Source: an uncultured Thermoplasmata archaeon
Lineage (GTDB): Archaea; Thermoplasmatota; Thermoplasmata; UBA10834
DNA length: 64,000 nt
Direction: 5' to 3'
Assembly (NCBI GenBank): GCA_963719945.1
Contig: CAVRDX010000001.1
Location: 576,001 to 640,000, forward strand
In this document: in pieces, positions 21,076 to 25,931 of the stretch
Layout of the letters: each line of letters opens with the position of its first letter
How positions within the stretch are numbered: position 1 is the first letter of the stretch
Made by a program: the position numbers and the translations under genes
The notes under the pieces: model-generated
Database searches by the model: none
The model's input: the letters and a program-made list of their open reading frames with translations, nothing else
Told to the model about the DNA's origin: nothing

Positions 21076-21813
21076 CTACTTCTTCAGCGCTCGCTTTCCG
21101 AACAACTTTCGCTTTACGGCCTTGATTTTCATCCTCTGTATGGCCTCTGTCGGGTTGAGCTTCTTCGGACATACCTCCACACAGTTGAACTGAGTGTGGC
21201 ATCTCCATACTCCGCTCTCGCTCTCGACGATGTCCATGCGCTGTTCGGGTATCGAATCACGCGTATCGACCAGGAACCTATACGACTTCAGCAACGCTGC
21301 AGGGCCCAGGTAATCGCTGTTTGTCCAGGCCATTGTACAAGAGCTCGTACAGGACCCGCACAAAATGCAGTCGATCGGCTCGTTTATAGGCGTCCGCTCC
21401 TTCGGCAACTGGATGAACTCCTTCTCAGGGTAGGGCTCCTTGCCCACCATGTAAGGTTTCACCTTCTTGATCCTGTCGAAGAAGTGCGTGTAGTCGACCG
21501 CTAGGTCCTTGACGACCTTCTGGTGCGGCAGAGGGCTGATCATAAGGTCACCCTTGCCCAGGAACTGGCTCATCTGGGTCTCACAGGCCAATCGTGTCTT
21601 CCCGCCTATGACCATGGCGCATGAACCACATACGCCTGCCCTGCAACAGAATCTGAAGCCCAATGTCCCGTCCTGATGGTTCAGGACCTCGAACAATGCA
21701 TCAAGTACCGTCATCCCTGGCTTGAGCTTCACATTGAAGGTCTGCCAGTAGGGCAGTTTGTCGGCCGCTGGGTCGAATCTCTGTACCTTTATCGAAATCT
21801 CTCCATCGGTCAT
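21076..21813 (-). CDS. sdhB: Succinate dehydrogenase/fumarate reductase Fe-S subunit
   Basis: CRAGVCGSC, CILCGSCTSSC, CHTQFNCVEVCP. Confidence 0.95.
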   Translation of the reverse strand: MTDGEISIKVQRFDPAADKLPYWQTFNVKLKPGMTVLDALFEVLNHQDGTLGFRFCCRAGVCGSCAMVIGGKTRLACETQMSQFLGKGDLMISPLPHQKVVKDLAVDYTHFFDRIKKVKPYMVGKEPYPEKEFIQLPKERTPINEPIDCILCGSCTSSCTMAWTNSDYLGPAALLKSYRFLVDTRDSIPEQRMDIVESESGVWRCHTQFNCVEVCPKKLNPTEAIQRMKIKAVKRKLFGKRALKK

Positions 21814-21814
21814 C

Positions 21815-23515
21815 TCAGTACCTCCTTGCCTCAGGCTTGTACTTGGTTATCTTGACCGGCGAGTAGCTGATCTCGATCCCCTTCGAGGTATATGTGGCAA
21901 TCGTGTGCCTCAGGAACTTCGCATCGTCCCTCTCCTTGAAGTCGAGCCTGGAGTGTGCACCCCTGCTCTCTTCCCTATTGAGAGCGCCAATGATAATGGC
22001 CTCTGCGACATCGAGCATCCCTTCCAGTTCGAATGCCCGGAAGAGATCCACGTTGTAGCTCTTGCCCTTGTTCTGCACGGTTATCCTCTGGTAGCGCTCC
22101 TTCAGCTCACGAATCTTCTTAAGCGCCTCCTCCATCGGAGCCTTGTCCCGATATATTCCGACCTGCTTAATCATCGTCTCCTTCATCTCTACCCTTATGT
22201 CAGCATGATTCTCGGGACCCGACCTTGCGAGGAGCGAATCTATCTTCGCTTTCGCCTCGCGGAGGCATTTGTTCATCGCGCCTTCGCCTTCCTTGAGCTT
22301 CGCCTTCGCGAGCACGTGCTCAACGGCCGCACGTCCAGACATCTTGCCGAAGACGACCGTATCCAGAAGCGAGTTTCCGCCGAGCCTGTTCGCGCCGTGG
22401 ACGCTCACGCAGCCGCATTCGCCGGCCGCGTATAGGCCTTTGAACTTTGTGGCCCCATGGACATCGGTGTCTATGCCGCCCATGGAATAGTGCTGCCCAG
22501 GCTGGATCGGAATCGGCTTCTCTATTGGATCCACATCCACGAAGTTTATGGCTAGGTCGCGGATGCCAGGAAGTCTCTCCAGAATCTTCTCTCTGCCGAG
22601 ATGCCGCAAATCGAGATGGACAAAGTCCTTGCCATCTATGCCTCTGCCCTCGTTGATCTCCGTCTGGATGGATCTGGACACGATATCTCGTGGAGCCAGC
22701 TCCATGGCCTTGGAAGCGTATTTGGACATGAACCGCTCTCCAAGGGAGTTCACCAGGTATCCGCCCTCCCCTCTCGCGCCCTCGGTCATCAGTATGTTGG
22801 TTCCGAAGAGCGATGTCGGGTGGAACTGAACGAATTCCATGTCCTTCAGGGGCACCCCGCGTCTGAAGCAGGTAGACTGCGCAGAACCGGTGGAGATCAA
22901 CGCATTGGTCGACCTGCCATATATCTGGCCGCTTCCGCCGCTTGCGATTATCACAGCCTCGGCCATGAACGGCTCGAGTTCCCCGGTCCTGAGGTTAAGG
23001 CATATGACTCCTCGGCAAGTGTCTCCATCCAGCACGAGGTCAACCATGACCCTATCCTCATAGAGCGGTATGTTCATCTTCACAGACACTTCCCAGAGCG
23101 TGTGCAGCATGAACATTCCAGTCTTATCGGCTGCGAAGCAGGTTCTAGGATATCCAGCCCCTCCGAAAGGCCTCTGAGCGATCTTTCCCTCATCGGTCCT
23201 CGAGAACGGGCAGCCCCAGTGCTCAATCTCGTATATGCAGGGGCCAGCCTCCTTTGTCATATATTCGACAGAGTCCTGGTCCGCGAGGTAATCGCTTCCC
23301 TTGATAGTGTCGAATGCGTGCTTCTCCCATGTGTCGTCCTTGGCTTCAGGGTTGTTCGCTAGAGGTGCGTTGACACCACCTTGCGCAGCCCCGGAGTGAG
23401 ATCTCACAGGGTGAACTTGCGATATGATCGCAGTATCCGCCTTGGGACCACACTCTATGGCTGCCCTGAGACCTGCCAAGCCGCCACCAATCACCAGTAT
23501 CTTGTGGTAGTGCAT
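21815..23515 (-). CDS. sdhA: Succinate dehydrogenase/fumarate reductase flavoprotein
   Basis: GGGLAG, RSHSGAAQGG (covalent-FAD His), QFHPT, TEGARGEG, HYSMGG, HGANRLGGNSL, ESRGAH. Confidence 0.96.
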   Translation of the reverse strand: MHYHKILVIGGGLAGLRAAIECGPKADTAIISQVHPVRSHSGAAQGGVNAPLANNPEAKDDTWEKHAFDTIKGSDYLADQDSVEYMTKEAGPCIYEIEHWGCPFSRTDEGKIAQRPFGGAGYPRTCFAADKTGMFMLHTLWEVSVKMNIPLYEDRVMVDLVLDGDTCRGVICLNLRTGELEPFMAEAVIIASGGSGQIYGRSTNALISTGSAQSTCFRRGVPLKDMEFVQFHPTSLFGTNILMTEGARGEGGYLVNSLGERFMSKYASKAMELAPRDIVSRSIQTEINEGRGIDGKDFVHLDLRHLGREKILERLPGIRDLAINFVDVDPIEKPIPIQPGQHYSMGGIDTDVHGATKFKGLYAAGECGCVSVHGANRLGGNSLLDTVVFGKMSGRAAVEHVLAKAKLKEGEGAMNKCLREAKAKIDSLLARSGPENHADIRVEMKETMIKQVGIYRDKAPMEEALKKIRELKERYQRITVQNKGKSYNVDLFRAFELEGMLDVAEAIIIGALNREESRGAHSRLDFKERDDAKFLRHTIATYTSKGIEISYSPVKITKYKPEARRY

Positions 23516-23528
23516 CTTGGAAACCTCC

Positions 23529-23924
23529 TTATCCAGTTATGAAGGGCCACAGGATGACGATTCCCCAGATCATAGTCGCTATACCCAAGACCCAGAGACC
23601 TACATCGACCAGTTTCCTTCTTCTGACGAACATGTCGAAATCAAGCATGACCGTCCTGAGACCATTCAGACCGTGGAGCAGCACCATCGACAGCATACCG
23701 TAGTCGACTACTATGTACAGCACCTGGTCCAGTCTGAGACTCACTTCCTCATATGAGAGCAGTGGCTCTTCCCCGGTCTCCTCACTGACGCCCATGAAAT
23801 GGGCGGCATACAAGTGTATTCCGAGGAATACTACCAGCAATATCGCAGACAGTCTCTGCAGGAACCATGCCCAAGTACCCGCCACCTTCGATGTCGCAAC
23901 TTTCTGTTCAGACATTTCAGGCAC
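23529..23924 (-). CDS. sdhD: Succinate dehydrogenase membrane anchor, small subunit
   Basis: WFLQRLSA; three TM helices; heme His residues in GIHL and LHGLNGLR. Confidence 0.85.
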   Translation of the reverse strand: MPEMSEQKVATSKVAGTWAWFLQRLSAILLVVFLGIHLYAAHFMGVSEETGEEPLLSYEEVSLRLDQVLYIVVDYGMLSMVLLHGLNGLRTVMLDFDMFVRRRKLVDVGLWVLGIATMIWGIVILWPFITG

Positions 23925-24333
23925 CTCCGCCAGGGAATATCAAGTGCCAAATAGCCAGCAAACCACCGACAACGAGCACTGCGGAGACAGCCATGGCCAC
24001 CCAGAAGACCAACTTCTGGCGCCTGATGCCCACTCCCAAGTCGAAGAGTACGACCCGGAATCCATTCATAGCGTGGTATATGACCACAATGACGAGCAGG
24101 AAGTCCATAGCGACGAACAACGGTTGAGAGGTGGTCGCCATAAGTGAATCGAAGCTCGACCCGTCCTCTCCCATAGATGCTGTGGATATGAACGACAGGT
24201 GCAAGAACACATATGCCACGAGAGCCAATCCCGTCAGTCTGTGTCCGACCCATGCCCACATCCCAGTCTTCATGTTCGTCGGCCAGAACTCAGAGTTCCT
24301 GCCGAACAACCATTTGAAGCTGCTTACTTTCAT
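23917..24333 (-). CDS. sdhC: Succinate dehydrogenase cytochrome b subunit
   Basis: WVGHRLTG, FLHL, YHAMNGFRVVLFD; three TM helices. Confidence 0.9.
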   Translation of the reverse strand: MKVSSFKWLFGRNSEFWPTNMKTGMWAWVGHRLTGLALVAYVFLHLSFISTASMGEDGSSFDSLMATTSQPLFVAMDFLLVIVVIYHAMNGFRVVLFDLGVGIRRQKLVFWVAMAVSAVLVVGGLLAIWHLIFPGGGA

Positions 24334-24371
24334 TCAAACACCTTGCCCAAACTCCATATTCGATCTTGCTT

Positions 24372-24425
24372 TGCGGGACTGGCAGGCTTGGAACCTGCGA
24401 GCAGACTTTCATCTGCTGAGTCCCC
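24372..24425 (-). ncRNA. tRNA-like structured leader element upstream of sdhC
   Basis: GGGGACTC AGCAGAT-GAAA-GTCTGCT C GCAGG-TTCCAAG-CCTGC CAGTCCCGCA: three stems, a GNRA loop and a 5-bp/7-nt T-arm-like hairpin. TATA-like TTAAGTAT starts about 30 nt upstream. Confidence 0.6.
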
Positions 24426-24672
24426 GGTTCGCCTAGACCAGCAAGAATATACTTAAGAGTATCTAATCGAACAAAATATGAGCGACTTTCATACGCCACG
24501 CTTCAATTTCCTCTGCAATATCGTCAAATAGATTACGAATTTCGTCTATTCTTGTCGAGGATTGTTCAGATAGAGCAGATGATGTTGAGCGCATGCAGAA
24601 TCCGGAACCGATGGCGCTGTATTGACCCGAACAAACGAACAATGTCAAGTATATGCATGGAGATACTGGTAC

Positions 24673-24840
24673 ATGGCAGAGATGGCCAAGTATCAATGCA
24701 GCGTTTGTGGATACATATACGACCCTGAACAGGGTGACCCAACCCAATCAATCGCGCCAGGAACTCCATTCGAAGATCTGCCCGAAGATTGGACATGCCC
24801 GGAGTGCGGTGTCACAAAGGATGAGTTCGTGCAACTGTGA
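24673..24840 (+). CDS. Rubredoxin
   Basis: [12 protein letters not shown]...[15 protein letters not shown]. Confidence 0.95.
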
Positions 24841-24887: not shown

Positions 24888-25931
24888 ATGATTCTACGCT
24901 TGGCGATAATCGGATTCGGAAACGTCGGTCAGGAATTCGCGAGGATGCTCCTTGACAAGAGGGACTGGCTCCTCAAGACTAAGGGGTTAGATGTGGAAAT
25001 CGTTGCGATATCCACGCGCAGCAGGGGATCCCTGATATCAGACAGAGGATTGGACCTTGAGCGAATCCTCGATCTGCTCGCCAAAGGGAAATCACTCGAT
25101 GAGTATGGTGAAGAGGCTACAGAATGCACGGCAAGGCAGATCATCGATCGCACAATCGCCGACATGATGGTCGAGCTGACGGCCCTTAATGTCGAGGACG
25201 GGCAACCTGCGACGGATCACATCGCCCATGCTCTGTCAGAGGGCATGGATGTCGTAACAGCGAACAAAGGACCGATAGCATTCGCATATAGGGACCTCAG
25301 AACCCTAGCAAGGTCAAGGGGAGCGAGATTCAGATTTGAGGGCACCGTCATGGATGGGACTCCGATATTCAGCCTCATGGAGAAGACTCTGCCCGGATGC
25401 GAAGTAATGGAGATGCGAGGCATACTGAACAGCACCTCGAATTACGTCCTCACTGCGATGGCTAATGGACGGAGTATGAAAGATGCAGTTATGGAAGCTC
25501 AGGCCAAAGGGATCGCCGAAGCTGATCCTAAGCTCGATCTGGAAGGGTGGGATGCTGCTGCAAAGATAACCGCACTCGCCAATGTGCTCATGGATGCACG
25601 CATGACCCCTCGAGATGTCGACCGGATGGGCATAAATGACATCGCATCGGAAATCATGAATGAGGCAGCCAAACAGGGCAATCGGGTTAGACTCGTTGCG
25701 AGCGCTTCGAGGAATGGCGATAGAGTCGAGCTGCGAGTGAGACCTGAGTCGGTTTCGTCGGATAGCCCGTTTTGGTCCGTGAACGGGACTTCGAGTGCGA
25801 TCACGATAAGAACTGACCTAATGGGAGAATTGACCATCCTCGAGACGAATCCCGAACTGACTCAGACGGCCTATGCCGTGTTCTCGGACATGATTCATGT
25901 CGTCGAATCTATAAGATCCGGAACCCTATGA
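24888..25931 (+). CDS. hom: Homoserine dehydrogenase
   Basis: IIGFGNVG, VVTANKGP, EGTVMDGTP, GILNSTSN, AEADP..DLEGWDAAAK. Confidence 0.92.
   Translation: MILRLAIIGFGNVGQEFARMLLDKRDWLLKTKGLDVEIVAISTRSRGSLISDRGLDLERILDLLAKGKSLDEYGEEATECTARQIIDRTIADMMVELTALNVEDGQPATDHIAHALSEGMDVVTANKGPIAFAYRDLRTLARSRGARFRFEGTVMDGTPIFSLMEKTLPGCEVMEMRGILNSTSNYVLTAMANGRSMKDAVMEAQAKGIAEADPKLDLEGWDAAAKITALANVLMDARMTPRDVDRMGINDIASEIMNEAAKQGNRVRLVASASRNGDRVELRVRPESVSSDSPFWSVNGTSSAITIRTDLMGELTILETNPELTQTAYAVFSDMIHVVESIRSGTL

Follow-up and report, generated by a model that had tools for sequence, protein, structure and literature searches.

The sdhC leader of E. coli is targeted by RyhB, Spot42, and RybB, and the 5′ UTR of Drosophila SDH-Ip contains an iron-responsive element. 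To our knowledge, few cis-acting mRNA structures have been described in archaea and none for a respiratory operon; likewise, we know of no dedicated post-transcriptional element for an archaeal TCA-cycle or respiratory operon. In bacteria, mRNAs such as ompA and papA of E. coli and aprE of B. subtilis are stabilized by 5′-terminal stem-loops, and RNase J-like activity is present in all archaea (PMC3997798). Small branched RNAs of another kind, the t-elements of Haloferax volcanii, resemble tRNAs in structure and are cut by both RNase P and tRNase Z (PMC4326828). In a limited literature search, we found neither an archaeal precedent for a 5′ stem-loop stabilizer nor a paper describing the element reported here.

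The window analyzed here is a stretch of 64,000 nucleotides from an uncultured Thermoplasmata archaeon (GenBank assembly GCA_963719945.1, contig CAVRDX010000001.1, positions 576,001 to 640,000), and all positions below refer to it unless stated otherwise. Its minus strand carries the sdhCDAB operon (21079-24333), which is composed of sdhC (23917-24333), sdhD (23529-23924), and sdhA (21815-23515), whose products match Pfam (Sdh_cyt, FAD_binding_2, and Succ_DH_flav_C), and of sdhB (21079-21813), matching the NCBIfam model of the SDH iron-sulfur subunit above its cut-off. A rubredoxin gene recognized by Pfam (24622-24840, plus strand) is divergent from sdhC, its start being likely the inner methionine (MAKYQC...), and the next gene on that strand encodes a homoserine dehydrogenase (24888-25931). 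Two minus-strand ORFs (24463-24747 and 24290-24499) overlap the rubredoxin and homoserine dehydrogenase genes and the leader and are spurious. The second of them, considered as a 69-amino-acid uORF of the leader, was rejected as unconserved, because the region is hypervariable.

Between an archaeal TATA box and sdhC, the original prediction had drawn a three-way junction of 54 nt on the minus strand (24372-24425). RNAfold recovered this junction both as the minimum free energy (MFE) structure and as the centroid, at -28.5 kcal/mol, a stability that was equaled by none of 200 dinucleotide shuffles (z = -3.14). Along the minus strand, the order is TTAAGTAT, 24 nt, GGGACT, C, the GAAA arm, C, the second arm, C, AGTCCC, and GCA. 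The outer stem, named P1, is formed in the MFE structure by GGGACT (24419-24424), which continues the conserved G-run GGGG[G]AC and is homologous to the covarying P1 of the family described below, and by AGTCCC (24375-24380), which corresponds to AGTC followed by GGGACGCA in the family. This stem, described as acceptor-like, and the GCA directly after it (24372-24374) are present as described, and so is the 7-bp arm capped by a GAAA tetraloop, AGCAGAT-GAAA-GTCTGCT (P1a, 24400-24417, also in the MFE structure). The geometry of a T-arm, claimed for the other arm (P1b, 24382-24398), held in part: the sequence GCAGG-TTCCAAG-CCTGC is there, but an unpaired C (24381) separates it from the 3′ strand of the outer stem, and the MFE structure lengthens its stem from 5 to 7 bp, leaving a 3-nt loop (CCA) instead of TTCCAAG. 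The P1 domain is followed by a linker (24343-24374) without family-wide consensus structure, then by the Shine-Dalgarno sequence GGTG (24339-24342), part of a AGGTGTTTGAATG motif that is invariant in 100 leaders, and by the ATG of sdhC (24331-24333), which 38 nt separate from the element, as had been stated. A BLAST search of the element against its own 1.78-Mb genome returned only itself, indicating a single copy.

The absence of a named family for the element also stood, since the 4227 models of Rfam 15 gave no match at E ≤ 10 in the intergenic region of the window, and the leaders of 12 relatives were likewise without a match at E ≤ 1. Apart from these, sub-threshold matches to the Rfam C/D-box sRNA sR30 were seen in or near the sdh operon of three relatives (L026:803-852 and L015:816-865 on the minus strand, L059:2541-2576 on the plus strand). 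With 21-22 bits (E 0.16-0.41), they remain below the gathering score of 38 and are probably due to chance.

Searches with SdhC in related genomes, GTDB species representatives, and JGI metagenomes yielded about 135 loci and about 100 distinct leaders, their sources being uncultured Thermoplasmata or Thermoplasmatota MAGs. The leader is conserved in at least three genera of uncultured Thermoplasmata and, judged by these sequences, would belong to one family of them. The leaders share a common layout: promoter, GTCTAGGCGnCCGGGGG, helix, variable interior, helix, (CGGGACGCA), linker, and AGGTGTTTGAATG. All members of the family have the block GTCTAGGCGnCC plus the G-run ahead of the helix. CGGGACGCA follows the returning strand in genera g2 and g3 and is missing in g1, the genus of the window, and in g4; its position is fixed relative to P1, while its distances to TATA and ATG vary. 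Between the two strands of the helix, the interior cannot be aligned between clades and is wholly different in other species of the window's own genus. In the canonical leaders, the spacing from TATA to P1 is fixed, the first P1 pair coming 27-28 nt after TATA, which, counted from the predicted start, would put P1 at about +2 to +5. The canonical P1 domain measures 26-54 nt, has a mean MFE of -22.5 kcal/mol, and folds as an unbranched hairpin in 58 of 60 leaders; about 30-45 nt without conserved structure lie between it and the ribosome-binding site.

The outer stem of the window (GGGGACT/AGTCCC) aligns with GGGGGACnn/nnGTC of the family, and the 3′ side GTC-GGGA-CGCA of the family becomes GTC-C-CGCA in the window. 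This replacement of GGGA by C suggests that the G-run itself is paired in the window, whereas it would be unpaired in g2 and g3. A covariance model, R1, was built from an alignment of 60 canonical leaders (A3) with P1 as its only helix. It gave exactly one match per genome in 21 of the 49 genomes of the order, including 17 of the 19 genomes of g2, and the matches checked (in G018, G012, G019, G015, G013, and G021) were all directly upstream of sdhC. Neither the window nor genus g4, both with different 3′ flanks, is recognized by R1; the window variant lacks the canonical 3′ flank and aligns with the model over its conserved 5′ block alone. Motifs representing the promoter, the 3′ flank, and TCTAGG[C/G]G, the block at the start site, were scanned for and occurred only at sdhC or by chance. 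The element is thus neither a repeated element nor a regulon motif. For g4, RNAalifold on a MAFFT alignment, in which the 3′ strands were unaligned, gave no consensus fold, and the long hairpins of this genus come from single-sequence folds only.

The roughly 100 leaders are rich in G (36% G, 26% C, and 63% GC, versus 53% GC for the genome), and many canonical ones, L148 for example, have four or more G-runs. In such leaders, it is conceivable that a G-quadruplex competes with P1. A quadruplex was discarded for the window, which has one G-run only.

In order to score P1, nine pairs beside the conserved flanks were considered in A3, a MAFFT alignment. Paired cells amounted to 75.5% (67.7 ± 1.1% in shuffles), double-change cells to 43 (16.8 ± 3.5), and the covariation score to 0.284 (0.157), each value being reached by none of 500 shuffles, a count that overstates the significance since the leaders are interrelated. 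The slid-register control and the number of haplotypes are more robust in this respect: the true register of P1 outscored every slid register, and when three consecutive pairs were taken in strict register, 30 of the 60 leaders, representing 10 haplotypes, were fully compatible with pairing, versus 10.2 expected for strands combined at random. Pair 19-71, for instance, is CG in 34 leaders, AU in 9, UG in 8, GC in 2, and UA in 2. The noisier alignment of 100 leaders gave the same covariation result. When each 5′ strand was paired with its own 3′ strand, the duplexes were more stable than with swapped strands (mean of -8.3 versus -6.1 kcal/mol), and none of 5000 permutations reached the observed mean. 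An extension of the helix outside P1 (P0, GCG...CC with GG...CGC) was tried and rejected, the variants GGGATGAG, GGGAAGC, and GGGAGCA occurring without a compensating change on the 5′ side. Sequence comparison therefore points to a single closing helix, P1, right after the G-run as the conserved feature of the leader, and the best-supported interpretation is that pairing, rather than sequence, is selected in the P1 domain.

The sense strand folded more stably than the antisense in 95 of 102 leaders (means of -28.5 versus -22.0 kcal/mol), and the two strands of P1 can be a few nt or as many as about 40 nt apart; both observations argue for a structure at the RNA level and against one at the DNA level. 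The opposite view is that the region is a transcription-factor site or a cruciform acting as DNA, or else a GC-rich spacer with fortuitous hairpins and no function. It has in its favor that the promoter and the block from -12 to -1 are very highly conserved, making DNA-binding regulators likely, and that the thermodynamic signal over the leaders is modest (mean z only -1.0, with z > 0 in 20%). However, a protein-bound DNA palindrome is incompatible with so variable a strand spacing, G-U pairs are used in P1, the covariation exceeds that of both shuffles and slid registers, and the element evolves more slowly than fourfold-degenerate sites. We consequently hold a DNA-level or functionless region to be quite improbable.

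Unlike P1, the arms of the window are not conserved. The GAAA arm and the second arm were found only in the window and in the three relatives closest to it, with SdhC 91-96% identical, and both are absent from the other species of the genus and from other genera. Even within this subgroup of four, the second-arm loop reads TTCCAAG, TTCTAAA, TTCTAAA, and, in L007, TTTAGAA; the GAAA arm keeps its inner 5 bp and loses its outer 2 bp, P1b of L005 contains one A-C mismatch, and the junction residues differ. Three substitutions disrupt pairs among the four and none is compensatory. The original prediction had looked to relatives for conservation and covariation: the arms have none, and the outer stem covaries. 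The element is 88-90% identical among the four, compared with 75-78% at fourfold-degenerate sites of sdhC and 97-100% in the 38 nt before the start codon, indicating a moderate constraint, below that of the flanks.

These data bear on the proposal that the junction is the top half of a tRNA, either a t-element that tRNase Z or RNase P would cut, giving the mRNA a new 5′ end or releasing a small tRNA-like RNA, or a separate tRNA mimic. The 6 bp of the outer stem and 5 bp of P1b could indeed stack to 11 bp, the 7-nt loop begins with U and has A as its fifth nucleotide, and the t-elements of Haloferax are natural substrates of RNase P and tRNase Z (PMC4326828). Nevertheless, ARAGORN detected in the whole window only a tRNA-His far from the element, and nothing in 24300-24520 at default thresholds, including the armless mitochondrial (-mt) mode; matches obtained at a 70% threshold were dismissed as noise. 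The Rfam tRNA model RF00005 had no match at E ≤ 10 in the intergenic region. In tRNAs, the T stem and the acceptor stem are contiguous, and the 7-nt T-loop follows UUCRANY. Here, the stack would be of 6+5 bp with the unpaired C between, at the acceptor-like strand, versus the contiguous 7+5 bp of a tRNA, the loop UUCCAAG has a C at the position of R57, and this loop drifts to TTTAGAA in L007. Transcription from the base of the stem would moreover leave RNase P without a 5′ leader. Finally, since the arms are missing from most leaders, of which 58 of the 60 canonical ones form a plain hairpin, the conserved function cannot depend on a tRNA shape. Neither tRNA-like proposal, then, is supported, and we consider a t-element or tRNA mimic very improbable. 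On the evidence of the alignments, the two extra arms of the window, the "T-arm" included, appear to be free decoration, a correction to the tRNA-like shape drawn by hand from one genome; the hairpin domain at the mRNA start evolves fast, and the three-armed fold is its local form.

Another suggestion was that of a new riboswitch, in which the junction would bind a metabolite (FAD, succinate, haem, or Fe) and switch sdh expression. A structured leader ahead of a metabolic operon, and a compact three-way junction with a GNRA loop, would suit such a function. On the other hand, the interior columns have no majority residue, the sequence, length (26-54 nt), and topology of the domain are all hypervariable, and the junction residues differ even among the four closest relatives. 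Neither a conserved expression platform nor a sequestration of the Shine-Dalgarno sequence was detected: RNAalifold predicted no pairs in the 3′ part of the 60 leaders, the unpaired probability of the Shine-Dalgarno sequence was 0.35, versus 0.32 in controls with shuffled upstream sequence (Wilcoxon p 0.15), and no U-tract follows the domain. In the absence of a conserved interior, of 3′ structure, of an effect on the Shine-Dalgarno sequence, and of a U-tract, riboswitch and attenuator readings are disfavored, and a riboswitch is to us the least probable of the explanations weighed here.

Two known RNA motifs were also looked for and rejected. The flanks and loops do not fit a K-turn by eye. 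Seven leaders from sister species of the same genus (L009, L012, L076, L013, L074, L010, and L014) have CAGTGCTG(G/A) in common, a sequence similar to the CAGUGN loop known from iron-responsive elements; the folds predicted for them place CAGUGC in a stem or in the 3′ portion of a larger loop, not in an apical hexaloop, and this reading was abandoned.

The promoter of the window contains the TATA box TTAAGTAT (24449-24456), read directly from the sequence. It fits the (c)TTWAWATA-like boxes of the 31 tRNA genes of this genome, in agreement with the TATA-like box that had been noted upstream of the element. CTTAAGTA hardly varies among about 100 related sequences upstream of sdhC, and the promoter common to all family members reads TTTTGTTCGAttAGATAy-CTTAAGTA. 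Further upstream, at about 24457-24530, an anchored consensus of 43 relatives contains the blocks ACGAttA (-67), TTGAA (-49), atGaAAntCGC (-35), and TTTTGTTCGAttAGATAc. Conservation thus reaches -70, with CGATTA-like repeats, and extends beyond BRE/TATA. Between TATA and the predicted start, the block GTCTAGGCGAAC (24427-24438, about -12 to -1) keeps a fixed position relative to TATA and may be a DNA-level initiator or operator; within 100 leaders, GTCTAGGCG is at least 90% conserved. Judging from this conservation, the upstream blocks and GTCTAGGCG are likely operator sites of one or more transcription factors.

In archaea, the 8-bp TATA box is usually found at about -30 to -23. With this spacing, transcription is predicted to start at the pyrimidine-purine step CG at 24425-24427, 22-24 nt after TATA, a position that the match to the TATA consensus supports without proving it. 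The 5′ end would thus be 1-3 nt away from the beginning of the outer stem. Over the leaders, the first paired nucleotide is at most 5 nt from +1 in 93% of cases versus 77% in shuffles, a small difference that makes the test a weak one. An exact look-up of the window's SdhC among RNA-derived contigs gave no match.

Three other features of the promoter region were noted. A terminator-like hairpin was called at 24482-24499 on the minus strand (GTGGCGTATGAAAGTCGC then TCATATTTTG), where it overlaps the promoter block GAAAnnCGC; it is unconserved in relatives and therefore probably no terminator. In L078, L081, and L084, TAGGCGnCC is replaced by GCCCCC just before the G-run, and the resulting GTCTGCCCCCGGGGGAC is a C5G5 palindrome at the predicted start site. 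A long-range pairing of GUCUAGGC with GUUUGGGC was rejected, being limited to the subgroup of the window and located upstream of the predicted start.

Thus, the sdhCDAB transcript carries at its predicted 5′ end a structured RNA with homologs in related Thermoplasmata, and among the functions initially proposed, a stabilizing or regulatory role in the mRNA is the best remaining one. The reading that we favor, with a probability of roughly 45%, is that the sdhCDAB mRNA has a structured 5′ leader specific to this lineage, a 5′-terminal stabilizer protecting the end; both the stabilizing function and the start site are inferred. Transcription would start in the conserved G-run, 22-24 nt after TATA, and P1, some 1-5 nt from the start, would close a stable domain (26-54 nt, about -22 kcal/mol) whose distal part is free to change in sequence, length, and topology. 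The terminal stem-loop would bury the 5′ end of the mRNA and slow its decay by archaeal 5′-3′ exonucleases of the RNase J or aCPSF2 type, which in turn would set the expression level of SDH. The base of P1 and the conserved G-rich flanks may also contact a protein. The genome encodes three β-CASP or RNase J-type nucleases (G000 C1:433778-434152, minus strand; C1:854115-854438, plus strand; C1:696124-696951, minus strand): an aCPSF1-like protein of 640 amino acids, an aCPSF2-like one of 418, for which the Cas14 MBL-CASP model also gives a score, under its cut-off, and an RNase J-like one of 472, whose 87 bits are below the cut-off of the bacterial model. The helix would be terminal only if the predicted start holds, i.e., is not further upstream.

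A pure stabilizer leaves unexplained the CGGGACGCA flank of g2 and g3 and the unpaired G-run there. The main rival explanation is an operator, in which an RNA-binding regulator would recognize the base of P1 and the conserved G-rich single strands beside it, GGGGG before the helix and CGGGAC after it. Such a regulator could act on how the sdh mRNA is translated, degraded, or processed, for example according to the redox, iron, or flavin state. Conservation confined to the base of P1 and its flanks, with a free distal part, is typical of protein-bound hairpins; the constancy of CGGGACGCA relative to P1, in contrast to its distances to TATA and ATG, argues for a role at the RNA level; and the motif occurs once per genome, only before sdhC where checked. 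Yet the family-wide element can do without the 3′ flank, which g1 and g4 lack; the ribosome-binding site is 30-45 nt away, the accessibility of the Shine-Dalgarno sequence is unaffected, and no candidate protein was identified. We regard a protein operator, and the control it would exert, as rather doubtful, and its more specific form, in which P1 and the G-rich flanks would act as an operator or sensor coupling complex II synthesis to redox, iron, or flavin in sediment Thermoplasmata, as somewhat less likely again.

Whatever its function, the stabilizer being preferred, the sequence data describe what appears to be a new structured mRNA leader outside Rfam, present as a single copy in the genome of the window and only before sdhC where checked. 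The element could enter Rfam as a new RNA family, and it offers a test case for the question of whether 5′-terminal stem-loops shield archaeal mRNAs from decay of the RNase J or aCPSF2 type, as they do in bacteria.

Compared with the Haloferax t-elements, the element is likewise archaeal, small, and branched, located beside a functional RNA, and in the window it can be drawn as an acceptor-like stem with a T-like arm. Unlike them, it matches neither a tRNA finder nor the Rfam tRNA model, its T-loop consensus is unmet and unconserved, and most homologous leaders lack the branched shape. With the E. coli sdhC and Drosophila SDH-Ip leaders, it would share control through the 5′ leader of a respiratory-complex mRNA; those mechanisms, however, act at or near the ribosome-binding site or the cap, through defined sequence motifs. 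The bacterial stabilizers differ from it in their host, since the archaeal nucleases would be aRNase J or aCPSF2 rather than RNase E or RppH. The present element has no sequence homology to them, its G-rich flanks are conserved, and its 5′ end is predicted. Still, like the ompA, papA, and aprE leaders, it would place a stable helix a few nucleotides from the (predicted) 5′ end, apart from the ribosome-binding site, and, as in these bacterial stabilizers, where pairing and not sequence matters, its P1 covaries while the distal part is free.
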